A DNA stretch of 36,914 bases from Clostridia bacterium. Its GTDB lineage: Bacteria; Bacillota; Clostridia; Oscillospirales; Acutalibacteraceae. The stretch spans positions 1 to 36,914 of the forward strand of contig JAFRKM010000089.1 in assembly GCA_017431755.1 (NCBI GenBank), written 5' to 3'. The first letter of the stretch is position 1; every line of letters starts with the position of its first letter. Positions 10,233 through 19,619 of this stretch are shown one piece after another. A model generated the notes under the pieces. That model saw only the letters and a program-made list of their open reading frames with translations, ran no database searches and was not told the DNA's origin. A program made the position numbers and the translations under genes.

Positions 10233-10706
10233 TTGATTTTTAAAATGTTTAAAAAACTGTTGATTTTGTTAAAAAGGGCTGATAAAAAATTGGATGATAC
10301 AATTAAAATTTTAGCAGCAACTCAAAATTGGAGAAAAGTATATGATTTTTTGAATTTGCGGCTAAAAAATAGTAAAGTCAGCTATAGTGATGCATCGCGT
10401 ATATTGCTTGCCAGTGAAGAAATATTTGTTAATATTTCAAACTATGCTTATAAAGAAAAAAAAGGCGATGTTATTATAAATTTTGTTTGCAGTAATAGTT
10501 CGCCGGTTGTGGTAGAAATAAAATTTACTGATGAAGGAGTTAAATTTGATCCAACAAAAGTAAAAATGCCGGATGTGAGCCTTGATTTAAATCAAAGAAA
10601 AATTGGTGGATTGGGATTGTTTATAGTAAACAAAGTTATGAATAAAGTGGAATATAAGTATGAAAATAGCAGCAATAATTTAATAATTACCAAAATTATT
10701 AAATAA
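10233..10706 (+). CDS. Anti-sigma regulatory factor, serine protein kinase (RsbW/SpoIIAB-like HATPase_c)
   Basis: N-box-like EEIFVNISNYAY, G1-like TDEGVKFDP, G2 GGLGLFIVNKVM. About 150 aa. Followed by a STAS antagonist. The start may be ATG at 10245. Confidence 0.8.
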   Translation: MIFKMFKKLLILLKRADKKLDDTIKILAATQNWRKVYDFLNLRLKNSKVSYSDASRILLASEEIFVNISNYAYKEKKGDVIINFVCSNSSPVVVEIKFTDEGVKFDPTKVKMPDVSLDLNQRKIGGLGLFIVNKVMNKVEYKYENSSNNLIITKIIK

Positions 10707-10727
10707 GTATAGAAGGAGGAAAAAGAT

Positions 10728-11039
10728 ATGACATTCAAAAAAATGCAAAAAGGTAATACGGTAACTTGTGTAATTGAGGGTAGAATAGACACTCAGTCGT
10801 CACCAGATTTGCAAGTGGAGTTTGAAAAAGTACTTAATGAAGAAATAAAAAAATTTGTGCTAGATTTTGAAAAGGTTAATTATTTAAGTAGCGCGGGGCT
10901 TAGAGTAATACTTTGGTTGCAAAAGAAAGTTTCAGCAATGGATGAAGGATATATAGAAGTAATTAACGCTAATGATGAAGTTTTTGAAGTTTTTGATATG
11001 ACAGGTTTTACAGATTTTTTACCAGTAAATGCAAATTAA
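10728..11039 (+). CDS. Anti-sigma factor antagonist (STAS domain, RsbV/SpoIIAA-like)
   Basis: 103-aa STAS fold signature with the phosphorylatable-serine motif VNYLSSAGLRVIL. RBS aaggagg upstream. Confidence 0.85.
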   Translation: MTFKKMQKGNTVTCVIEGRIDTQSSPDLQVEFEKVLNEEIKKFVLDFEKVNYLSSAGLRVILWLQKKVSAMDEGYIEVINANDEVFEVFDMTGFTDFLPVNAN

Positions 11040-11058: not shown

Positions 11059-11085
11059 AAGCACGCTGTTTGGCGTGCTTTTATT
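11059..11085 (+). terminator. Rho-independent terminator after the STAS gene
   Basis: Stem aagcacgc / gcgtgctt (11059-11066 / 11073-11080) followed by ttttatt. Confidence 0.7.
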
Positions 11086-11212
11086 AAATTTAATTTTTGC
11101 ATTATAGACTAGAAATAATATTTAAAAATTTTAAGAAAATAATAATCTTATAACTTTCATAAATTCAGATTTTATCACAGAAAATAGAGTTTAATATAAT
11201 TATTCTAGCATT

Positions 11213-11310: not shown

Positions 11311-12522
11311 ATGAATAAGATAAAAAATTTTTTCTATAAGCTAAGTAAAAACATTTTGTTTGTAACTATCATATTTGCTACAGTAATTTTAACTGTGTAT
11401 ACCATTACTGAAGCTATAGACAGTTCTTCTACAAATAGCAGTACTAATAATAGTAAAACTTCAGACGGTAATGGGTCTGCACAAAATAATCTTGAGGATA
11501 CTGAGATAGACAAAATTGTGGAAGATTTGAAAGTTTCTGGCAATATTGACAATATACTGGAAAAACTTGATGAAATTATTTACCGTGCGCAACTTTCCGG
11601 TAATTCTAAACTTCAAGAATATGCTACAAATATGAAGAAAAAATATGAACTTCAAAAAGAATTAGACAGTGTAAATGGTTTAATAAGTGCCATGAAAAAG
11701 AAGAACTCTTCTATTGCAGATGTAGATACCCAAGTTACTAAAATTCTTTCCGTTTCTACTATAGTGGAAGATTTACGTGGTGCAGTTTCAGATGAGTGCC
11801 TTTTTATACTGGAATCTTTAGATGAAGAAAAAGTGAAAAATTTGCAAGAGCTTATGAGTGAAGTTGAAACTGTTTTTGATTTAAAAGATATTTCCTCCTT
11901 TACTGTTCAACAAAGAAGTCTTTTGGATATTTTATTTTTAAGTAAACTTATAGAAGATGATATGATTGATAACGAAAGACTTGATTTAGCTAAAAATACA
12001 ATTTCTGTTGCAATTACGATACTTGAATCTTATGAAAAACAAAATTATATTCCAGCCGAGTACACTAAGTTAGTTGATGACTCAGACGATTTTTCAAAAA
12101 CCGGAAACAAGGCATTTTCTGTGTTACCAGAGCAGGTTGTATTTTTGGGTGGATACTTTACAATGAAACATGCTCCTATTATGTACGATGGACATATTTT
12201 AGTTGCTGTTGAGGATTTATATCAATATATAGATTCAGATATAGAATATATGTATAATAACGCGACAATGGTTATTACATCTCCTGGTAAGACTTTAGAA
12301 ATTGAAAGTGGTAAAAATCAAGCGTATTTAAATGATGAGCCAAGGAATATTCCTGTTCCGATTCTTAATTATAATGATGTTATTTATATGTCAGCAGAGT
12401 TTTTTGCCGAATGTAATGATATATCTTATAAATATGTTGCGGATAGTGAGTTTTTAGTTCTTTATTATAATCTTGTACAACTTAAAAATCCTTCTGTTCC
12501 AAATCAAATTCATAAAGATTAA
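11311..12522 (+). CDS. Membrane-anchored protein with C-terminal copper-amine-oxidase-N-like (stalk) domain
   Basis: RBS aggaggagg. N-terminal TM helix (ILFVTIIFATVILTVYTI), an S/N-rich linker and a long helical region. The C-terminal ~110 aa (MYDGHILVAVEDLYQYI...MVITSPGKTLEIESGKNQAYLNDEPRNIPVPILNYNDVIYMSAEFFAE) resembles the Clostridia 'copper amine oxidase N-terminal' domain. Confidence 0.6.
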   Translation: MNKIKNFFYKLSKNILFVTIIFATVILTVYTITEAIDSSSTNSSTNNSKTSDGNGSAQNNLEDTEIDKIVEDLKVSGNIDNILEKLDEIIYRAQLSGNSKLQEYATNMKKKYELQKELDSVNGLISAMKKKNSSIADVDTQVTKILSVSTIVEDLRGAVSDECLFILESLDEEKVKNLQELMSEVETVFDLKDISSFTVQQRSLLDILFLSKLIEDDMIDNERLDLAKNTISVAITILESYEKQNYIPAEYTKLVDDSDDFSKTGNKAFSVLPEQVVFLGGYFTMKHAPIMYDGHILVAVEDLYQYIDSDIEYMYNNATMVITSPGKTLEIESGKNQAYLNDEPRNIPVPILNYNDVIYMSAEFFAECNDISYKYVADSEFLVLYYNLVQLKNPSVPNQIHKD

Positions 12523-12541
12523 AATTGGAGGAATAAAATAA

Positions 12542-13510
12542 ATGGCTAAATATACTATAATTGCCGATATAGGTAAAGGATTAATCAGTTTGCTAAGAGA
12601 TAAACTTGTTCCTGATGTTGTTGATAAAGCAGAAAGTATAGGAATTTGCGATCCAAAAGAACGTGGTGATTATATTGTAGGGATTCATCCGTACGATATA
12701 AAAGAAGATACTAGTGGTCGTGGACAAGATCCTGTACCTATGGCTGATGGGACTGTGGCTGACCCGCCAGCAATGATGGAGCTTTATTATGTGATTTCTG
12801 TAAATAGTAAAGCTGAGTTAGAATCTAAAGCACTAGACGAAGCTAAAATTATTGGAAAGATAATCCAGGTTTTTAAAGATAATCCAACTATTCCTGCAAG
12901 ATATATGCCAAGCAATGTTGGTGCACCGATAGAAACTGTTCCGGTTTCTATGCTTCCGCTTAATATGGAAGAAAAAGTTAAAGTTTGGACTATGTTTGGT
13001 GAATCATATAAATTATCTGTGTTTTACGTTATTGGACCAATAGCAATAGATTCTGAAAAAATGCATAAACCCAAAAAGAGAGTTGAAACTATTCATTTGG
13101 ATAGCCATCAATATAAGCATAAAAAAGTTCTTGAATTTGCAACTTTTATTAAAGAAGAAGATATTGATGATGAATATACTAGTCGACCTGATGAGGACGA
13201 AGATGAAGATGAAGACAGCTTTGGGGACGATAGTTTTGGTGATGATGAAGATAGTTTCGGAGAAAGTGATGAAACAAGTAATGAAGACGGCATGGGTGGA
13301 GACGAAGAAATGAATGAAGATGAAGATATGGGTGATAGTGAAGAAACCAGTAGCGATAATGATGATTTTTCCTATGACGAAGAATTAGCTAATGAAGATT
13401 TAGATGAAGATTCAGATAAAAGCTATGATGAAGAAGAGTTACCTGCGGATGAAGAAACTAGTGAAGGCGAAGGTGATACTGAAGAAATAACCTTTAAATC
13501 AGGGGAATAA
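12542..13510 (+). CDS. DUF4255 (Pvc16/Afp16 N-terminal, tail-terminator/cap-like) protein with ~118-aa poly-acidic C-terminal tail
   Basis: The N-terminal ~180 aa follow the DUF4255 pattern as I remember it (I..I...L..LL...LVP, PPAMMELYYVISV, ALDEAKIIGKIIQVFKDNPTIP, V.VSMLPLNMEEKVKVWTMFGESYKLSVFYVIGPIAID). The tail at 13154-13507 is D/E-rich. RBS ggagg lies upstream. Confidence 0.75.
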   Translation: MAKYTIIADIGKGLISLLRDKLVPDVVDKAESIGICDPKERGDYIVGIHPYDIKEDTSGRGQDPVPMADGTVADPPAMMELYYVISVNSKAELESKALDEAKIIGKIIQVFKDNPTIPARYMPSNVGAPIETVPVSMLPLNMEEKVKVWTMFGESYKLSVFYVIGPIAIDSEKMHKPKKRVETIHLDSHQYKHKKVLEFATFIKEEDIDDEYTSRPDEDEDEDEDSFGDDSFGDDEDSFGESDETSNEDGMGGDEEMNEDEDMGDSEETSSDNDDFSYDEELANEDLDEDSDKSYDEEELPADEETSEGEGDTEEITFKSGE

Positions 13511-13534
13511 TTTAAATTTTAGGAGAAAAAAACA

Positions 13535-14443
13535 ATGGGAGTAACTGATATTTTTAAAAACAGCAATGAAAAGAAGCTTATGGATAGATTCATGGAAGTG
13601 GATGTTGATAAAATAAATGATGAAATGAATATTTATAGTCAATACGAACGCATGAGGCAAACTTGGAGCTATGAAGGAAAAAGTGGTTTATACCATAAAA
13701 TGAAAAAAGGTGAAGATATTAGGGATGATATTGACAATATTAAAAAAGATAAAGGTTACCATATTATTTTTACGAAAGAAATATATAAGCGATATATCAA
13801 TTATTTAAATTATTTTAAAGAAAATTATTCAAAAAAAGGTAGATCTGATAGTTTTAATGAATATGAAAAAAATTTTAAAGTTTTTGTAAATTCTGGAAGC
13901 CTTTTTTTGAAAGATTTTAAAGTTTACAAAAATTATTTGGAATTTGTTTTAAAAAATAAAAATGTTACACAAAAGGAACAGATGGGCATTATTAGGTTAA
14001 TTTCGAATATAAAATCACAATTAAAGAATATTGATACTAGTATAAAAAAATTAGAAGAAATAATATTGAAAAGTGATTTAGAATTAAACACAAATAAGGA
14101 CTATTATTTGAAGATAGAAGAAGTGCAAAACTGGCTGTATGGAGAAAATAATTTTTATAACAAAGGTCTTCAAAAAATTTTTAATGACTACAAAGATATT
14201 TATGATTTAATAATGAAATGTAATAAAGACAAATTTTTAGCTTGTGTTTATAAGTATATAAAAAACAAAAAACTGAAATCATTAGAGCAAGAGCTTAGGT
14301 GTATACCTGTGAATAAGATTGAGCCATTAGTAAAAATAACAGTAGAAATGTTTGGTAGGGGTAATAGATATGAAAAAAAATTTGTAGAATTAATGGATGT
14401 TTTAAATAATGATTTAACCCCTAAGTTGGTGAATCTTAAATAA
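13535..14443 (+). CDS. Hypothetical cytoplasmic K/Y/N-rich helical protein
   Basis: RBS aggag 8 nt upstream and 24-nt spacing from the previous gene. 302 open codons in AT-rich DNA. No TM segment and no recognisable motif. Confidence 0.6.
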   Translation: MGVTDIFKNSNEKKLMDRFMEVDVDKINDEMNIYSQYERMRQTWSYEGKSGLYHKMKKGEDIRDDIDNIKKDKGYHIIFTKEIYKRYINYLNYFKENYSKKGRSDSFNEYEKNFKVFVNSGSLFLKDFKVYKNYLEFVLKNKNVTQKEQMGIIRLISNIKSQLKNIDTSIKKLEEIILKSDLELNTNKDYYLKIEEVQNWLYGENNFYNKGLQKIFNDYKDIYDLIMKCNKDKFLACVYKYIKNKKLKSLEQELRCIPVNKIEPLVKITVEMFGRGNRYEKKFVELMDVLNNDLTPKLVNLK

Positions 14444-14481
14444 TATTAGGTATTATATATATTTAAAAGGTGGGTTAGAGT

Positions 14482-15270
14482 ATGCGTGTAATTCATAGGG
14501 CAGCGCTGGTGTTTATGCTTAAAGATATTTATTCTAAAATGCCAATTACAAATGCTGTTATTTTGTGTAACGGCAAGCAAAATCCGTATACAAGAAAAAA
14601 AGACGGGTATTATGTTTTTTCTAATCTTTATCCTATGGATTATGAAATAAGCATTAGTGCCAAAGGATATATCGATCTTAATTTTAATGTTACTTTGCGA
14701 GAAAATGAAACGCAGGTGCATAATTATGATATGTCTTATAGTGTGGATAATGAAAGTCTAACTCATTTAACAAAGTTTGAGATAACTGTTTCTCATAAAA
14801 AAGAAAGGTTAAAAGATACGGAAGTAAAACTTGTGCTTAAAAACGAAGCTAAATTTATGAAAGTTATAGAAGCAGCACAGGCCGGCACAGATGAATTAAA
14901 ACTTAATTTAGATATGATGCCATCGCTTATTGGTCAAAATTATATTTATGAATTTAAAAAGCAAAAAAATGAATTTTTTATTTGGGGATATGATAATGAA
15001 AAGAAAGTGTATACTCTTAAAAATCCTCTTGAAAACGATATAGAACCTGGTGGAAAAGTCTATCCATTTTGGAATTTAAAAACAGATTCTTTAGGTAGAA
15101 TTACAATGCCGATTATTAGCCAGTTTATGACGGAAAGTAATGTTGATTTTGAAATTATTGCACCGGATGGACTTTCCTCTAAATTTTCGGCAGACCTTAC
15201 TAGTTTGTCAGAGTCAGATAAGGTTATTTATTTAAAAGCAGGCCTTAGAAAAAAAGCTAATAAAAATTAA
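14482..15270 (+). CDS. Hypothetical protein with N-terminal carboxypeptidase-regulatory-like beta-sandwich
   Basis: RBS aaggtggg. ITNAVILCNG...KKDGYYVFSNLYPMDYEISISAKGYIDLNFNVTL fits the CarboxypepD_reg-like pattern. The rest is unrecognised. Confidence 0.55.
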   Translation: MRVIHRAALVFMLKDIYSKMPITNAVILCNGKQNPYTRKKDGYYVFSNLYPMDYEISISAKGYIDLNFNVTLRENETQVHNYDMSYSVDNESLTHLTKFEITVSHKKERLKDTEVKLVLKNEAKFMKVIEAAQAGTDELKLNLDMMPSLIGQNYIYEFKKQKNEFFIWGYDNEKKVYTLKNPLENDIEPGGKVYPFWNLKTDSLGRITMPIISQFMTESNVDFEIIAPDGLSSKFSADLTSLSESDKVIYLKAGLRKKANKN

Positions 15271-15292
15271 TTAAAAAGGGAGCAAAAAAGTT

Positions 15293-15664
15293 ATGGGAAT
15301 TTTGGTTGGAATGGGTGCACAGTGTATGTGTACAATGGGATTAACACCCGCACCGCTTATGATTTTGCCTCAAAAGAAAGCTTTTGCAGAAAATAAACCT
15401 ATTGCCACAATTCAAGATAACAAACCTATGGTTAATATTTTGCCTTTTGGGATGTGTAAATCCCTAGGCAATCCCGGTGTTAAACCGCCTGTTATGCCAC
15501 AAGCACCGTGTATTCCTAATACTGCTGCACCATGGATGCCAGGATCTCCAACAGTTCTTGTTGGTAATGTGCCAGCGCTTAATAATAGTTGCAAACTTAT
15601 TTGCAATTACGGCGGAGTGATTTCTATTATGAATCCCGGAATAACTAAAGTTATGGTAAAATAA
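15293..15664 (+). CDS. DUF4280 (PAAR-like) domain protein, stand-alone
   Basis: Conserved Cys/Pro/Gly pattern: GAQCMCTMGLTPAPLMILP, ATIQDNKPMVNILPFGMC, PCIPNTAAPWMPGSPTVLVGNVPALNNSCKLICNYGGVISI. RBS agggag. Locally higher G+C. Confidence 0.85.
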   Translation: MGILVGMGAQCMCTMGLTPAPLMILPQKKAFAENKPIATIQDNKPMVNILPFGMCKSLGNPGVKPPVMPQAPCIPNTAAPWMPGSPTVLVGNVPALNNSCKLICNYGGVISIMNPGITKVMVK

Positions 15665-15683
15665 TTTTTTAAAGGAATATATT

Positions 15684-17753
15684 ATGAATAAAATTTTAAA
15701 AAATTTTTTTTCAAAAAAAATGATATTTGAATCCTATGAAAGTTACAAAGACTACTTGATTGATGAAATGAATGTGGTTTTTTTAACTTTGGATTATTAT
15801 TTGGAAGCAGATAAAAAGAAAAATTTTGAAAATTTTAAAAATGATGCTTTAAATGCTATTGCAAAAGCAAATTTTTATGTAAAATCAAGATTGGAATGTT
15901 CTAAAGAAGATTTTTTTGCAGGAAAATATATTAAAGAGACTTTTATTTTTTCAGACCTTGAATGGTTTTGTTTAATGGTGGTTTTAATTAAACGTTTTAG
16001 TCCATTGAATCTTAAAAAATATTCCGATATTTTAGGCGGAGATAGCTTTGATTTTACTTATGAAGATTTAATCAAAATATATTTTTTTAAAAAAGAAATT
16101 TACGACATTGAAAATTTTTATGATATAATGGTGTGCCTAAAAGAAAAACTCAGTTCTCTTTGTTTTAAAGAAGGTGAACTGGAGATTGACGACTATATTT
16201 TTAAAAGTATTGTTGGAAATTCTATAGATAATTTTGATAAGAAAAATTTTTCTTATTTTAAGGTGCCTGAGGTTGAAAAAAAACTTATAATTAGAGAGGA
16301 TTTAGCCCGTAGATTTGCAGATTTTTCAAATGATTTTTCGGGTAATGAAAATATTTTATATTTTTTGTATGGAGAAAAAGGTATAGGTAAAAAAACACTG
16401 GCAAAGCGAATTTGTGAAATTCTTAAAAAAGGGCTTTTAGAAGTAAATCTGGCTGGATTTAAAGATATGAACAAAGATAATTACAACAATTTAATGTCTG
16501 CTATGCGCTTTGCCCTTTGTAATAAATTTTATATTTCTTTTTGTGGCTGCGATAAATTTGAGAAAGAAGTTCTAGATTATTACAAAAGTTTTATACTAAA
16601 CGTTGCTACAAAGTATTCAAAGATAGTTTTTGTTATATCAGAAAATAAATTTGACTTAAAAGAAAGCTTTTCTTGCGGAAAATGTTTAAGTGTAGAGGTT
16701 GAAGATTTAAGTTTAGAAGAAAGTTTTAAAATATGGGAAAACGCTTTTTCTAATTTAAATATTGATAAAACTGTAGATGTAAATGAAATTTCTAATAAAT
16801 TTGAATTTACTCCTTTGCAGATAATAAATACATGTGTAGATGCGGAAAATATTAGAGCTTGGAAGAAAACGGATACTATTAGCAAAGAAATTATATGTAA
16901 ATGTGCATATGAACAGGTAGCGGATAGAATATCCGATAAAGCTATACTTATTAAGAAAAAACATACGTGGGACGAGCTTGTTCTGCCGGAGGAACAAAAG
17001 AAGCTGATTATTCGTGCTTGTAATCAAATAAAATACAAAAATATAGTTTATGATAAATGGGGAATGGACAAAAAAGTATTATACGGCAGAGGCCTTAGCA
17101 TGCTGTTTTCCGGGCCTTCAGGTACAGGTAAAACTATGGCAGCTCAGGTTGTGGCAAATGAACTTGGGCTTGAAATATACAGAGTTGACCTTTCTAAAGT
17201 TGTTTCTAAATACATAGGAGAAACAGAGAAAAATTTAGGAGAAATATTTGAAAGTGCGAAAAAAAGTAATGTAATACTCCTTTTTGATGAAACGGACGCT
17301 ATTTTTGGTAAAAGAACAGAAGTTAAGGATTCACACGACAAAAATGCCAACGTGGAAACTTCTTATCTTCTTCAAAAAATGGAAGAATACAATGGAGTTA
17401 CAATTATGACCACAAACTTTATTGGAAATATTGATAAAGCATTTTTCAGAAGAATAAATTATGTAGTGCATTTTACGCTTCCAGATGCAAAGCTTCGAAA
17501 AGAAATATGGCAAAAAATGTATCCGAAAGAAACGCCTATCTCAGAAGACGTTGATTTTGATTTTCTTGCTAGACATTTTGAAGTTTCGGGGGGTAGTATA
17601 AAAAATATTGTTATTACATCCAGTTTTATTGCGGCTTCCGAATCAAACGAAGTAAAAATGGAACATATAATAAAAAGCCTTGAGTACGAAATAAAAAAAC
17701 AAGGAAAAATAGTTTCTAAATCTGATTTTGGCGAATATGGATATTTGCTTTAA
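15684..17753 (+). CDS. Double AAA+ ATPase, Pvc15/Afp15-like (degenerate D1, canonical D2)
   Basis: D2 has Walker A GPSGTGKT (17112-17135), Walker B ILLFDETD, VTIMTTN, and RR in FFRRINYVVHF. D1 has a Walker-A-like GEKGIGKKT (16371-16397) and no clear hhhhDE. The CDC48-like D2 context KYIGETEKNLGEIF is present. Confidence 0.9.
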   Translation: MNKILKNFFSKKMIFESYESYKDYLIDEMNVVFLTLDYYLEADKKKNFENFKNDALNAIAKANFYVKSRLECSKEDFFAGKYIKETFIFSDLEWFCLMVVLIKRFSPLNLKKYSDILGGDSFDFTYEDLIKIYFFKKEIYDIENFYDIMVCLKEKLSSLCFKEGELEIDDYIFKSIVGNSIDNFDKKNFSYFKVPEVEKKLIIREDLARRFADFSNDFSGNENILYFLYGEKGIGKKTLAKRICEILKKGLLEVNLAGFKDMNKDNYNNLMSAMRFALCNKFYISFCGCDKFEKEVLDYYKSFILNVATKYSKIVFVISENKFDLKESFSCGKCLSVEVEDLSLEESFKIWENAFSNLNIDKTVDVNEISNKFEFTPLQIINTCVDAENIRAWKKTDTISKEIICKCAYEQVADRISDKAILIKKKHTWDELVLPEEQKKLIIRACNQIKYKNIVYDKWGMDKKVLYGRGLSMLFSGPSGTGKTMAAQVVANELGLEIYRVDLSKVVSKYIGETEKNLGEIFESAKKSNVILLFDETDAIFGKRTEVKDSHDKNANVETSYLLQKMEEYNGVTIMTTNFIGNIDKAFFRRINYVVHFTLPDAKLRKEIWQKMYPKETPISEDVDFDFLARHFEVSGGSIKNIVITSSFIAASESNEVKMEHIIKSLEYEIKKQGKIVSKSDFGEYGYLL

Positions 17754-17919: not shown

Positions 17920-18603
17920 ATGGCAGAAAATAAGTATTTAAATGAGAAAAAATATAAAATGGGTGTAAGATTTTTGATTTTAGCTGGAATTTTGGTTTTA
18001 ATTATTGGTTTAGGTTTAGGTGGATTTTTGATACATAAAGGATATAAAGGTATTGTAGAACCAGACACTTTAAAAAGTGATACTTTGAAAGTTGATACTT
18101 TAAAAAATTCACTTGAGGTTAAAAAAAGTGAACTAGAATCTAAAGGTATTAAATATAACGAATTTGCCAAATATTCTGATGGTGAAGAGTATGATTTAAA
18201 GATCATTACAAAAGTACTAGATCCTAGCTTCCCAAATTATAAGTTTGATGAATATAAAAATAATCCATTAACAAAAGAGTATTGTGATGCTAAAAACAGT
18301 GTGGAAAATCATAGTGGAAAATTTATTAATACGGAGCCAACAGAGTTTTTTAATGAAGGATTAACAAAATTTATTAATATAGGGTCAATAATGTTAGGTG
18401 TATTTATATGCTTGGTTTCTATTGGGGGTTCAATTAGTATTTTTAAAATAGCAATGAGAAGACATATACTTGCTTTTTCAGTTCAACAAGTTATGCCTGT
18501 TGCTAAAGAAGGTATAGATGAAGTGGCTCCAACAATTGGAAATGCTGTTGGTGAAATTGCAAAAGGTATAAAAAAAGGGATGAATGATGATGAAAATAAA
18601 TGA
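17920..18603 (+). CDS. Hypothetical two-TM membrane protein with DTLKx pentapeptide repeats
   Basis: RBS aaaggaggg. TM1 is VRFLILAGILVLIIGLGLGGFLI and TM2 is IGSIMLGVFICLVSIGGSISIF. The extracytoplasmic segment lies between them. Confidence 0.6.
   Translation: MAENKYLNEKKYKMGVRFLILAGILVLIIGLGLGGFLIHKGYKGIVEPDTLKSDTLKVDTLKNSLEVKKSELESKGIKYNEFAKYSDGEEYDLKIITKVLDPSFPNYKFDEYKNNPLTKEYCDAKNSVENHSGKFINTEPTEFFNEGLTKFINIGSIMLGVFICLVSIGGSISIFKIAMRRHILAFSVQQVMPVAKEGIDEVAPTIGNAVGEIAKGIKKGMNDDENK
18064..18108 (+). repeat. 3 x 15-nt in-frame tandem repeat (gacactttaaaaagt / gatactttgaaagtt / gatactttaaaaaat)
   Basis: Read directly. It encodes DTLKS-DTLKV-DTLKN. Confidence 0.9.
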
Positions 18604-18689
18604 TTTATTTCATCTATTTTAAGTAATAAAAGCTGATTGTAAATCGTTTTTTCTTATTTTGTTAGAAGGCGATATAAATATTTATTTTA

Positions 18690-18713
18690 AAAAGCGGCAT
18701 TTAAGCCGCTTTT
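18690..18713. terminator. Bidirectional hairpin terminator between convergent genes
   Basis: aaaagcggc / gccgctttt with a 6-nt loop. A/T runs flank it on both sides. It lies between the 17920-18603 (+) and 18735-19502 (-) genes. Confidence 0.65.
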
Positions 18714-18734
18714 AAGTTGCTATAAAAGGAAGTT

Positions 18735-19502
18735 TTACATGTTGTTTTCTTTGTCATCGTAAGATTGTTTTATTAAATCCAAAACATAATCCAGCATATC
18801 TTCGTCGTTTAAATAAACTACGTAGTCTCCATTACCCCAATGACCTATTTTTGAGATATCTTTAGCGAATTTGTAAGGGTCTTTAAGTTTTTCACTTGGT
18901 AAATTAATGTATATTTTTAATGTGCTTTTTTGTATTTCAATATCGCATATATTTGTACTAGTTTTAAAAGCAATATCTAGTGTTTTAGGTTCAATACTAA
19001 TGTTGCCAAAAAGTAATATTCTATCTCTTAGCAGTACATAAAGTCTTTTTGTGGTTTCTGAACCGTGAGAAATATGATCTTGCTCTGTGTATTGGACAGC
19101 GCCTGAATTTTGGAATTCCTCCGCCGTGTATTCATCTATGATTTTGTGCCCTTCCGGAGCAATTTTTTTAAGCTTGTCGGTTGTGCTGCTTATTGAAGCA
19201 ATACTATACAAAATTTCGTAAGCATCTTCGGCTGTAATATTATAGAATTCTCTTATTCGCGGTTTGCCGTCAAAGGTTTCTATTGCACGTAAACCAGGAT
19301 TTAATTTATCAATTAAATTATGTACGTCTTTGTCCCTGAGTCTGCCCTCGACTTCATACACGCAGTACGCCCTGAACGCAAACGGCAAGCACTCGCTTTT
19401 ATTTAATTGCCTTAATCTGTATTCTAAATTATCAGCGTAGCCAATTTTTACGTATTCCGGAAATGACGGGTTGGTTAAAACATAAATTACACCTTTTTTC
19501 AT
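18735..19502 (-). CDS. T5orf172 (GIY-YIG superfamily) domain protein with C-terminal DUF5655-like domain
   Basis: N-terminus GVIYVLTNPSFPEYVKIGYADNLEYRLRQLNKSECLPFAFRAYCVYEV matches the T5orf172/MUG113 pattern. C-terminus ...IAFKTSTNICDIEIQKSTLKIYINL...IGHWGNGDYVVYLNDEDMLDYVLDLIKQSY matches the DUF5655-type module. ATG at 19502 is 8 nt after aaggag; the ORF track GTG at 19511 overlaps that RBS. Confidence 0.75.
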   Translation of the reverse strand: MKKGVIYVLTNPSFPEYVKIGYADNLEYRLRQLNKSECLPFAFRAYCVYEVEGRLRDKDVHNLIDKLNPGLRAIETFDGKPRIREFYNITAEDAYEILYSIASISSTTDKLKKIAPEGHKIIDEYTAEEFQNSGAVQYTEQDHISHGSETTKRLYVLLRDRILLFGNISIEPKTLDIAFKTSTNICDIEIQKSTLKIYINLPSEKLKDPYKFAKDISKIGHWGNGDYVVYLNDEDMLDYVLDLIKQSYDDKENNM

Positions 19503-19543
19503 GTAAATCACTCCTTATTTACAGAAAACTTCTATTAAAAAAA

Positions 19544-19619
19544 TGGAGCTACTGGGCGGACTCGAACCGCCGACCTGCTGATTACGAATCAGCTGCTCTA
19601 CCAACTGAGCCACAGTAGC
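19544..19619 (-). tRNA. tRNA-Thr (anticodon CGU), CCA encoded
   Basis: Reverse complement GCTACTGTGGCTCAGTTGGTAGAGCAGCTGATTCGTAATCAGCAGGTCGGCGGTTCGAGTCCGCCCAGTAGCTCCA folds into a full cloverleaf: 7-bp acceptor stem, GCTC/GAGC D-stem, GCTGA/TCAGC anticodon stem with loop TTCGTAA, and GGCGG/CCGCC T-stem with TTCGAGT. Confidence 0.95.

Follow-up and report, generated by a model that had tools for sequence, protein, structure and literature searches.

Introduction

Extracellular contractile injection systems (eCISs), among them the Serratia Afp and the Photorhabdus PVC, are encoded by a single operon of 16 genes (Cis1–Cis16), whose products include a cap, a tip and an AAA+ ATPase, Cis15, which is needed for cargo loading in PVCs. 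The PVC ATPase, Pvc15, pairs a catalytically deviant D1 with an active D2 that carries a GTGK Walker A, a DE Walker B, a sensor-1 Asn and two Arg fingers (PMC11495950). One published CIS pipeline demands that the genes be physically linked, within 12 kb (PMC8213781), and sheath/tube clusters that have no ATPase have been discarded in published work as phage or tailocin (PMC12210884).

Here, we analyze a stretch of 36,914 nt (“the window”) from a Clostridia bacterium of the Acutalibacteraceae (GCA_017431755.1, contig JAFRKM010000089.1, positions 1-36,914, forward strand). An original prediction had recognized in it a cap, a PAAR-like tip and a Pvc15-like ATPase with no syringe body, and had read them either as a stripped-down, possibly non-contractile machine or as part of a split locus. 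Our analysis indicates that the operon is likely one half of a contractile injection system encoded at two loci.

Results

Organization of the operon

The module spans positions 11311-17753 and comprises six genes, all on the + strand. The five genes originally predicted, from 12542 onward, agree exactly in position with the recomputed ORFs, and their spacing was likewise borne out, with intergenic spacers of 24, 38, 22 and 19 nt within 12542-17753, a purine-rich Shine-Dalgarno sequence before each gene of the operon and no terminator-like site inside the gene cluster in a sequence scan. The count of five must be raised by one, since a gene for a 403-aa Cu_amine_oxidN1 membrane protein (11311-12522) heads the operon. 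It ends 19 nt before the cap gene and is preceded by a G+C-rich hairpin followed by a T-run (11059-11080), which terminates the anti-sigma kinase/STAS unit before it, and by a candidate sigma-70-like promoter, TTATCA-17-TATAAT (11172-11200, + strand), recognized by consensus match only. Because the terminator and the promoter-like site both lie ahead of 11311, and the cap gene follows so closely, the predicted transcription unit contains six genes, with the hairpin as the 5' boundary of the module.

The other large ORFs of the window, when scanned with Pfam, are housekeeping and envelope genes together with one T5orf172/DUF5655 gene, and a single tRNA-Thr is present. As the original prediction had stated, none of them encodes a sheath, tube, spike or baseplate protein, so that CIS-structural genes are absent over the 11 kb upstream and 19 kb downstream of the module that the 36.9-kb window covers.

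Proteins encoded by the module

Profile and structure matches support all four domain assignments that had been made by eye (DUF4255, a carboxypeptidase-regulatory-like beta-sandwich, DUF4280 and a Pvc15-like AAA+ ATPase). The 403-aa protein, which matches Cu_amine_oxidN1 (Pfam E 1e-12), is predicted from hydropathy to be single-pass, with an N-terminal transmembrane helix at about residues 10-36, followed by an S/N-rich linker, a helical region and the C-terminal Cu_amine_oxidN1 domain. Its gene was found in 49 loci and neighbors the cap gene in nearly all related loci.

The cap, or tail terminator, homologue (12542-13510, + strand) matches Pvc16_N/DUF4255 over residues 14-182 (Pfam E 1.9e-27, above the gathering score) and the Pvc16_N protein of PDB 9gts with an E of 0.005. 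It consists of the Pvc16_N domain (residues 1-193) and a 129-aa tail (residues 194-322), which is of low complexity, contains 48% D/E and has no Pfam domain match. This poly-acidic tail is clade-specific: caps from Clostridial loci in which the CIS genes are contiguous measure just 190-200 aa and lack it, so some functional divergence from them is possible, while Afp16 (293 aa) has a C-terminal region past Pvc16_N at the place where the window cap has its poly-D/E stretch.

Downstream lies a gene for a basic (pI 9.2), all-helical protein of 302 aa with an ERMRQxW motif (13535-14443, + strand), which belongs to no family and has no match in Pfam, NCBIfam, PHROGs or PADLOC. Just 6 related loci carry it, each time with the cap gene on one side and the beta-sandwich gene on the other, and it evolves fast (dN/dS 0.51). 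Together with DUF4157 proteins and a UCH-type peptidase, it is among the effector-like products of genes linked to the module in relatives that merit attention.

The 262-aa beta-sandwich protein (14482-15270, + strand) matches CarboxypepD_reg with an E of 1.3e-6, below the gathering score, and its AF2 model (pLDDT 92) predicts three tandem transthyretin/Ig-like sandwiches. Foldseek retrieves pilins, adhesins and the TTL domain of carboxypeptidase D, and we rejected the idea of a hidden tube, sheath or spike, as no such match was returned and the fold is not that of a tube. The protein belongs to the conserved core of the module and has a counterpart in L061, a full CIS locus (hhalign E 5e-4).

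The 123-aa PAAR-like spike-tip protein (15293-15664, + strand; DUF4280, Pfam E 1.2e-32) also matches the NCBIfam model for IglG (E 7.6e-16), scoring 58 bits against an equivalog cut-off of 200 bits, which it does not reach. Cysteines C11, C13, C55, C73 and C104 are kept in 30-32 of 32 sequences, and the protein fits DUF4280 with these residues as candidate metal ligands.

The last gene encodes a 689-aa AAA+ ATPase of the Cis15/Afp15/Pvc15 type (15684-17753, + strand; Pfam AAA E 2.6e-33). It is 40% identical to Serratia entomophila Afp15 (tblastn E 7e-65), which adjoins a DUF4255 gene on its plasmid, and 41% identical to the ATPase within L061, and it matches the ATPase of a Nostoc CIS locus as well. 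An N-domain is followed by a degenerate D1, whose motifs are poorly conserved across homologues, and by a D2 with intact catalytic motifs, in which GPSGTGKT, FDETD, N578 and R589/R590 (Walker A, Walker B, sensor-1 and RR fingers) are invariant in 33 homologues. In its motifs, the protein follows the Pvc15/Afp15 pattern of an N-domain, a deviant D1 and an active-type D2. In PADLOC, residues 469-673 match IetA models; assignment to the IetAS defence system was rejected, since the match covers the generic AAA core alone and an IetS-like partner is lacking, and no other module protein has a PADLOC match.

Conservation of the module

Among gut and rumen Oscillospirales, about 50 genomes at the species level retain the module, and its gene order is the same in 49 species-level loci. 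Measured against the syntenic MAG locus L001, dN/dS is 0.058 for the Cu_amine_oxidN1 gene, 0.036 for the cap (N-domain), 0.13 for the beta-sandwich gene, 0.013 for the PAAR-like gene and 0.13 for the ATPase; values for hisS, alr, dus and fba, which flank the module, are 0.06-0.12. Given these low values, comparable to those of the flanking housekeeping genes, and the order kept in 49 loci, the module is evidently functional and not decaying. The DUF4280 gene is missing from five loci, and the lineage of the window is without the LysM, HAMP and MORN genes found along with the block in many relatives. The closest relatives are goat MAGs (species RGIG2248 and RGIG2532), with caps 94-95% identical to that of the window; no same-genome pair of module and structural operon was found for them.

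Structural genes in related Clostridia

Baseplate genes directly adjoin this block in more distant Clostridia (L053, L057 and L061-L065). The order in L061, L062 and L065 is two Baseplate_J genes, Tail_P2_I, a fibre-like gene, LysM, MORN, the cap and a gene of about 241 aa, followed in L061 only by the ATPase and, further on, DUF4280. L057, L053 and L063 carry a variably present Baseplate_J gene and then Tail_P2_I, fibre-like, LysM, HAMP, MORN, Cu_amine_oxidN1, cap, beta-sandwich, DUF4280 and ATPase genes. CIS_tube is found in L068. On the Intestinibacillus chromosome (a 2,421,374-bp record), the cap block at about 260-267 kb is separated by about 15-20 kb with non-CIS genes from an operon at about 227-247 kb that holds CIS_tube, Phage_GPD, Phage_base_V, gp25, Tail_P2_I, fibre, LysM, HAMP, MORN and Cu_amine_oxidN1.

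The MAG UMGS1491 carries a module of the window type, L014, at 74-95 kb of URZE01000002.1 (NODE_14, 244,922 bp), whose cap is 79% identical to that of the window and which, like the window module, adjoins mreBCD/PBP2. A second locus, L090, with a complete structural operon, occupies 217-238 kb of OJMH01000014.1, likewise 244,922 bp long, and has a MazF gene as its upstream boundary. It encodes a sheath (Phage_sheath_1, E 5.8e-19), two gp19 tube proteins (E 4.9e-33), a spike, base_V, gp25, two Baseplate_J proteins, Tail_P2_I and a fibre; cap, ATPase and DUF4280 genes are absent from this operon. The two loci have the highest tetranucleotide correlation of all pairs (0.989) and apparently lie on one contig, about 123 kb apart, a placement that follows from identical length, matching contig number and composition, overlapping sequence not being its basis.

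Low-GC gut Clostridia commonly have similar structural-only operons, ending in a fibre gene and LemA/TPM/spoIIR, and one of the MAGs concerned is labelled Acutalibacteraceae. These operons occupy a conserved chromosomal site beside spoIIR with housekeeping flanks and no prophage genes, and their fibre and Tail_P2_I proteins are 46-67% identical in amino acids to those encoded in physical linkage with the cap block of L053, L057 and L063. Since the detached module seems to be the sole place where cap, ATPase and tip occur, the two locus types are complementary in content, not redundant.

Discussion

A contractile injection system probably split between two loci

Related gut Clostridia keep structural genes at a separate site, and it is on this ground that we consider a conventional, split CIS the most likely explanation. 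Gut and rumen Oscillospirales would encode an Afp/PVC-like CIS at two chromosomal sites, with 11311-17753 as the cap/tip/ATPase half and a second site, outside the window, supplying the sheath, tube proteins, spike, gp25, two Baseplate_J-like proteins, Tail_P2_I and fibre. The Pvc16_N cap would terminate tube and sheath, the DUF4280 tip would sit on the spike and the Cis15 ATPase would load cargo, all in one particle assembled from the products of both loci. The membrane-anchored Cu_amine_oxidN1 protein, the triple beta-sandwich protein and the fast-evolving basic helical protein would act as lineage-specific accessories. The split-locus alternative of the original prediction, along with the structural genes expected elsewhere in the genome, is borne out in relatives, namely at the second sites of UMGS1491 (apparently on the same contig) and Intestinibacillus and in the contiguous blocks elsewhere. 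For the window organism, whose structural genes were sought within its 36.9 kb, we infer the split from these relatives.

Alternative explanations

The sheath-less machine put first by the original prediction, in which the module was exapted, in the lineage of the window, into a non-contractile ATPase-driven device working without tube or sheath, seems unlikely to us. Such a device might serve as an unfoldase or export complex associated with the membrane, or else as a module for defence or toxin action. This reading would accommodate the lack of structural genes in the window, and within 10 kb on either side in 21 of the 27 related loci for which 8 kb or more of upstream sequence exists, and also the strong purifying selection, the acidic cap tail, the loss of the LysM/HAMP/MORN neighbors and the likeness of the ATPase D2 to IetA-type defence ATPases. 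However, operons that lack exactly the module's genes exist in the same low-GC gut Clostridia, in UMGS1491 apparently on the same contig, the beta-sandwich protein conceals no structural component, and no PADLOC system was matched. Moreover, we know of no role for a cap or a PAAR-like tip without tube and spike. Because relatives have the block either contiguous with baseplate genes or alongside a structural operon elsewhere, the module is probably not autonomous; that some lineages, possibly including that of the window, are devoid of any structural operon and use it as an autonomous, non-contractile, ATP-driven CIS derivative is quite improbable.

We give still less weight to a trans-acting accessory set, in which the module would furnish unrelated contractile tails, of prophages or tailocins and not of a dedicated CIS operon, with a different terminator, tip and loader. 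The structural-only operons, which lack ATPase and cap, do have tailocin-like gene content and would be classed as tailocins by published pipelines (PMC12210884), but the homology of their fibre and Tail_P2_I proteins to the cap-block-linked ones and their non-prophage setting at the spoIIR site argue against it, and neither cap nor spike was found in IMG/VR viral contigs. Finally, a non-functional remnant, left when an ancestral CIS cluster lost its structural genes, a reading in line with the place of the block as the 3' part of contiguous CIS clusters in other Clostridia, is strongly disfavored and highly improbable in view of intact ORFs in about 50 species, dN/dS of 0.01-0.13 (level with or under the neighboring housekeeping genes), invariant ATPase catalytic residues and conserved PAAR-like cysteines.

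Implications

Under the two-locus reading, both halves would fail the published filters, and the system would be missed by CIS surveys. A single human-gut cap variant is indexed in 300 blocks of an assembly collection. If the reading is true, many gut and rumen Oscillospirales carry an uncounted phage-tail-like injection system, which would alter the list of gut Firmicutes able to inject proteins into neighbors or host cells. It would also be a natural case of a cap, tip and loader genetically separable from the syringe body, with a bearing on the engineering of CISs as delivery vehicles.

Comparison with known systems

The split layout, the poly-acidic cap tail and the extra conserved proteins are what is new relative to known CISs. 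The module shares with Afp and PVC a Pvc16_N cap, a two-ring AAA+ ATPase (degenerate D1, active-type D2) and a PAAR-like tip, and its relatives combine these parts with a sheath, gp19-type tubes, a Phage_GPD spike, gp25, Baseplate_J, Tail_P2_I and a fibre. It differs from them in the distribution of the genes over two sites, in a cap reduced to the N-terminal domain plus the poly-D/E tail, in a tip that is a DUF4280 and not a classical PAAR_motif protein, in the additional Cu_amine_oxidN1 and triple beta-sandwich proteins and in its host, a monoderm gut anaerobe.

In the T6SS, orphan vgrG-PAAR-effector islands likewise encode tip and accessory parts off the main cluster for use in trans, as we propose here. 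The main T6SS cluster, however, keeps a full core set, whereas here the cap, ATPase and tip seem confined to the detached module, which is eCIS-like and has no TssJLM or ClpV. Francisella IglG belongs to the same DUF4280 fold family and has conserved cysteines, but the window tip lacks its N-terminal extension, falls far short of its equivalog score and sits in an eCIS-type context, not in that of the Francisella T6SS. As in the membrane-attached or cytoplasmic CISs of Streptomyces (with CisA) and Anabaena (thylakoid-anchored), the genes of the module include one for a bitopic membrane protein, a likeness of topology, and together with the LysM, HAMP and MORN proteins linked to the block in relatives, it suggests that the window system may be associated with the cell envelope.

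Gene organization of the window operon

The window has a G+C content of about 30%, and its operon comprises six genes, of which the original prediction had recognized five. An ORF check recovered all five exactly where they had been placed: the cap gene (12542-13510, 322 aa; Pfam Pvc16_N/DUF4255, E 1.9e-27), a gene for a 302-aa protein with no Pfam match (13535-14443), the gene for a 262-aa sandwich protein (14482-15270; CarboxypepD_reg, E 1.3e-6, below threshold), a DUF4280 gene (15293-15664, 123 aa) and an ATPase gene (15684-17753, 689 aa; Pfam AAA, E 2.6e-33). Each is preceded by its own purine-rich Shine-Dalgarno-like motif, the intergenic gaps are 24, 38, 22 and 19 nt, and the cluster is free of terminator-like sites, all as had been claimed. 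Five is nevertheless not the full count, since the gene at 11311-12522 lies 19 nt 5' of the cap gene, follows a terminator hairpin with a T-run that closes the upstream unit (11059-11080) and, 3' of this hairpin, a promoter-like site (11172-11200), and is conserved with the cap operon. Its 403-aa product, hereafter CuAO, has a single transmembrane helix at the N terminus and a Cu_amine_oxidN1 domain at the C terminus.

Pfam scans of all other large ORFs in the window bore out the predicted lack of the structural bulk of a contractile injection system (CIS), with no sheath, tube, spike, baseplate, tape-measure or fibre gene, and the flanks are housekeeping genes, as described (dUTPase, mreBCD, PBP2, MGS, HisRS, Dus, Alr, aldolase), together with tRNA-Thr. 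The same scans placed an anti-sigma kinase/STAS pair, cell-envelope polysaccharide genes and a T5orf172/DUF5655 gene among the remaining ORFs. The pair, an anti-sigma-factor-type kinase (HATPase_c_2) and a STAS anti-anti-sigma factor (10233-11039), lies directly 5' of the module and is also kept upstream of it in three related loci (L001, L007, L038); a terminator separates pair and module, and a regulatory link between the two is unproven. Between the ATPase gene and fba, 17920-18603 encodes a 227-aa protein with two transmembrane helices and no family, followed by the minus-strand T5orf172+DUF5655 gene (18735-19511; PADLOC candidate families PDC-S57, E 5.7e-59, and PDC-S18, E 3.4e-34) and tRNA-Thr(CGT) at 19544-19619. 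The syntenic goat MAG locus L001 carries only a 130-aa ASCH-like gene at the counterpart of 17920-19619, which looks like a small variable island and is possibly defence-related.

Identity of the operon products

The assignment of the ATPase to the Afp15/Pvc15 type was upheld by a search among annotated plasmids, in which both best matches were CIS-linked. A Serratia entomophila plasmid protein is 40% identical over the second AAA domain, D2 (E 7e-65), and its gene stands directly before a DUF4255 gene in an annotated CIS cluster, the position of Afp15 relative to Afp16; the other match is a Nostoc locus with baseplate, phage-tail, CarboxypepD_reg-domain and DUF4157 genes. Among 33 homologues, D2 is invariant in its Walker A (GPxGTGKT) and Walker B (DE) motifs, sensor-1 Asn and two Arg fingers, while the D1 motifs show little conservation, a combination that is the Pvc15 pattern (PMC11495950). 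An exact-sequence look-up of the window ATPase returned no record. A candidate identity as the defence ATPase IetA was rejected, the PADLOC and NCBIfam IetA matches being limited to the generic AAA core; across all module proteins, PADLOC returned this generic match to IetA/TRIP13 alone and no defence system.

The cap assignment likewise held, residues 1-193 forming the Pvc16_N domain. The remaining 129 residues (194-322; 13121-13510) are 48% Asp/Glu. A poly-acidic tail of this kind recurs across the loci L001-L049, at about 50-60% Asp/Glu in most and 38 to 275 aa long depending on species; within the clade of 59% or higher cap identity it measures 80-220 aa. In the distant loci L052-L065, which include all contiguous CIS clusters, the caps are 190-200 aa long and have no acidic tail.

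The DUF4280 assignment was also upheld (Pfam E 1.2e-32), and the protein has five conserved cysteines. Five loci (L033, L038, L039, L042, L043) have no DUF4280 gene between the sandwich and ATPase genes, so the PAAR-like tip is not universal in the module; in the first four, a 176-178-aa polytopic membrane protein follows the ATPase in its place.

PHROGs and NCBIfam gave no match for the cap, CuAO, 302-aa and 262-aa proteins. An AF2 model of the sandwich protein from a 38-sequence alignment (pLDDT 92, pTM 0.87) predicts three tandem transthyretin/Ig-like beta-sandwiches, for which Foldseek returned pilins, adhesins and the carboxypeptidase-D TTL domain, and no tube, sheath or spike fold. With this fold and these matches, the protein is not a hidden structural core component, and we rejected it as a cryptic tube, sheath or spike. 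The 302-aa protein is basic (pI 9.2) and all-helical, matched nothing in Pfam, PADLOC, PHROGs or NCBIfam, and gave an unusable single-sequence AF2 model (pLDDT 38). It is only about 40% identical between the window and L001, whose operons are otherwise 81-97% identical, and its divergent helical family, marked by an ERMRQxW motif, occurs in only six loci, always between the cap and sandwich genes.

Distribution and contiguous relatives

Close homologues of the cap N-domain number in the hundreds in gut metagenomes, and the assembly collection lists one human gut variant (P0101) in 300 indexed blocks. Scanning one genome per species gave 59 cap loci, all in Clostridia, labelled Oscillospiraceae, Acutalibacteraceae, Ruminococcaceae, Eubacteriales, Intestinibacillus and Avoscillospira, with Lachnospiraceae and Clostridiaceae more distant. 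ORF calling and clustering gave a conserved order of CuAO, cap, an optional insert, triple-sandwich protein, DUF4280 and ATPase. The chromosomal context varies by species, L001 being syntenic with the window and L004-L006 lying between gatCAB/efp and cspB.

The most distant cap relatives (25-46% identity) are located in real CIS clusters. In L061, L062 and L065, two Baseplate_J genes, Tail_P2_I, a Big_2 fibre-like gene, LysM and MORN genes precede the cap and a protein of about 241 aa, which in L061 is followed by the ATPase and, further on, DUF4280 and a HAMP protein. In L057, L053 and L063, a Baseplate_J fragment (not in all), Tail_P2_I, a fibre-like gene, LysM on the reverse strand, HAMP and MORN lead into CuAO, cap, sandwich, DUF4280, ATPase and a 175-aa chaperone-like protein. 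From this gene order, and from the weak alignment of the L061 241-aa protein with the sandwich-protein profile (hhalign E 5e-4), the window block is equivalent to the 3' portion of a Clostridial CIS cluster. In about 20 loci of an intermediate type, LysM, HAMP and MORN still precede the block, with housekeeping genes further upstream, and window-type loci keep the six genes alone, without LysM, HAMP or MORN.

Several relatives carry further genes beside the block. In L011 (2195-5593), and also in L013, L031, L033 and L028, the HAMP/MORN genes are adjoined by as many as six paralogues in tandem, each 170-215 aa long. Every one has a Nif11-like leader with a terminal double-glycine motif (…ISGG) and, after it, Gly/Ala-rich hydrophobic cores, and they look like large leader-bearing bacteriocin-type peptides. 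At eight loci (L011, L013, L020, L023, L025, L027, L031, L034), a 340-835-aa protein of one family, F12, is encoded directly 5' of CuAO/cap, and the member scanned (L020, 6073-8580) has a UCH domain (ubiquitin C-terminal hydrolase, peptidase C19; E 1.4e-16). Such a domain is unusual in gut Clostridia, and its bearer is a candidate effector directed at eukaryotes. In Intestinibacillus and Avoscillospira (L054, 14494-16638; L055, 14423-16900; L056), the next gene after the ATPase encodes a chaperone-like protein of 172-184 aa and the one after that a protein of 708-825 aa, which in L054 has an eCIS_core (DUF4157) domain (E 3e-28), the usual eCIS toxin marker. No equivalent occurs in the window.

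Structural genes at second sites

A Tail_P2_I profile built from the contiguous-locus proteins matched two proteins on records of 2,421,374 and 2,747,233 bp, the exact sizes of the Intestinibacillus chromosomes with the L054 and L056 blocks. On the 2,421,374-bp chromosome, about 227-247 kb encodes a 1385-aa protein, CIS_tube, Phage_GPD, Phage_base_V, gp25, 999-aa and 694-aa proteins, Tail_P2_I, a fibre-like and a 374-aa protein, HAMP, MORN and CuAO; on the same strand, about 260-267 kb encodes cap, sandwich, DUF4280, ATPase, a 172-aa protein and a DUF4157 protein, with binding-protein and HlyD-like genes between the two blocks. A view of ±10 kb had suggested that Intestinibacillus was sheath-less, a reading overturned by the genes at about 227-247 kb.

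Several low-GC gut MAGs and many metagenome samples contain other Tail_P2_I homologues (45-55% identical), whose operons end with spike, base_V, gp25, proteins of about 1010 and 720 aa, Tail_P2_I and fibre. LemA/TPM/spoIIR or other housekeeping genes directly follow the fibre gene, and none of these operons has LysM, HAMP, MORN, CuAO, cap, sandwich, DUF4280 or ATPase genes downstream. The site is a recurrent one (L069, L070, L075-L086, L100-L109): where the sequence reaches far enough past the fibre gene, most loci have LemA and/or TPM_phosphatase and/or spoIIR there, sporulation-related neighbours that might hint at developmental regulation. Among the further Tail_P2_I homologues, none had a MAG accession in common with a cap-bearing MAG. 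Two candidate pairings were discarded: L076 and L004, with gatAB near the CIS part in both, are only about 70% identical in nucleotide sequence and hence different species, and cap P0109 and Tail_P2_I P0403, apparently on one 29,517-bp contig, lie on two different contigs of equal size.

A metagenome scan with the spike found L090, a full structural operon. Its gene order opens with MazF and a product of 322 aa, followed by the sheath (Phage_sheath_1, E 5.8e-19), the tube (gp19, E 4.9e-33), a product of 125 aa and another gp19-like protein. After these come products of 227 and 802 aa, the spike, base_V and gp25, a pair of Baseplate_J-like proteins, Tail_P2_I and the fibre; exactly the cap, ATPase and PAAR-like genes are missing. 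L090 occupies 217-238 kb of OJMH01000014.1 (244,922 bp). The window-type module L014, whose cap is 79% identical to that of the window and which likewise adjoins mreBCD/PBP2, occupies 74-95 kb of URZE01000002.1, described as "UMGS1491 ... NODE_14_length_244922". Because equal size alone misleads, as in the 29,517-bp case, the contig ordinal and the tetranucleotide signature were also used; the L090/L014 correlation, 0.989, is the highest of any pair. From these three agreements we infer that L014 and L090 lie on one contig, the halves about 123 kb apart.

A probable split contractile injection system

The structural operons supply tube, sheath, spike, gp25, gp6/gp7-like baseplate and fibre, and the window-type modules supply the PAAR-like tip, Cis15 ATPase and Cis16 cap; the two locus types are complementary in gene content and jointly make up the usual CIS core. 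The window operon is thus probably one part of a split, two-locus CIS. Of the two options left by the original prediction, the split locus is the one favoured, by the structural genes at second sites in relatives, and its headline of a new sheath-less machine is not. An autonomous, exapted machine would fit the missing structural genes in the window and the missing baseplate-family gene in 21 of the 27 cap loci having at least 8 kb of upstream sequence, and is unlikely beside those second sites. That the module is a trans-acting kit for unrelated tails seems quite improbable.

Decay into a remnant is very improbable, as dN/dS between the window and L001 indicates selective maintenance: 0.058 for CuAO, 0.036 for the cap N-domain, 0.013 for DUF4280 and 0.13 for both the sandwich protein and the ATPase, beside 0.06-0.12 for the flanking hisS, dus, alr, STAS gene and fba, the 302-aa gene being the exception within the module (0.51). 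Scanning IMG/VR with both cap and spike gave no matches and so lends no support to a prophage or satellite origin.

For the split CIS, a conventional mechanism is most likely. The structural operon would make baseplate, tube and sheath, DUF4280 would sharpen the spike, a cap hexamer would terminate tube and sheath, and the ATPase would act in assembly and cargo loading, as Pvc15 has been shown to do. Attachment to the envelope is hinted at by the membrane-anchored CuAO and the LysM, HAMP and MORN proteins of relatives. For the triple beta-sandwich protein a role as decoration or adaptor is conceivable, and the basic, fast-evolving helical 302-aa protein might be either cargo or a protein that pairs with the acidic cap tail.

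Comparison with known systems

The CIS literature on DUF4255/DUF4280, Pvc15/16, DUF4157 and split or Oscillospiraceae CIS yielded no description of this arrangement. Existing surveys would miss a two-locus CIS by design, since one collects eCIS Pfam genes into groups within 12 kb and requires four or more of them (PMC8213781), and another drops clusters without core categories and discards as phage or tailocin any cluster that has fibre and tape-measure genes but lacks Cis15 and Cis6 (PMC12210884). The module is not a categorically new sheath-less machine, with a small chance of the opposite for the window's own genome. What is new relative to known systems is the probable spread of a CIS over two loci in gut Oscillospirales, together with a cap made of the N-domain and a poly-acidic tail only and two extra conserved proteins.
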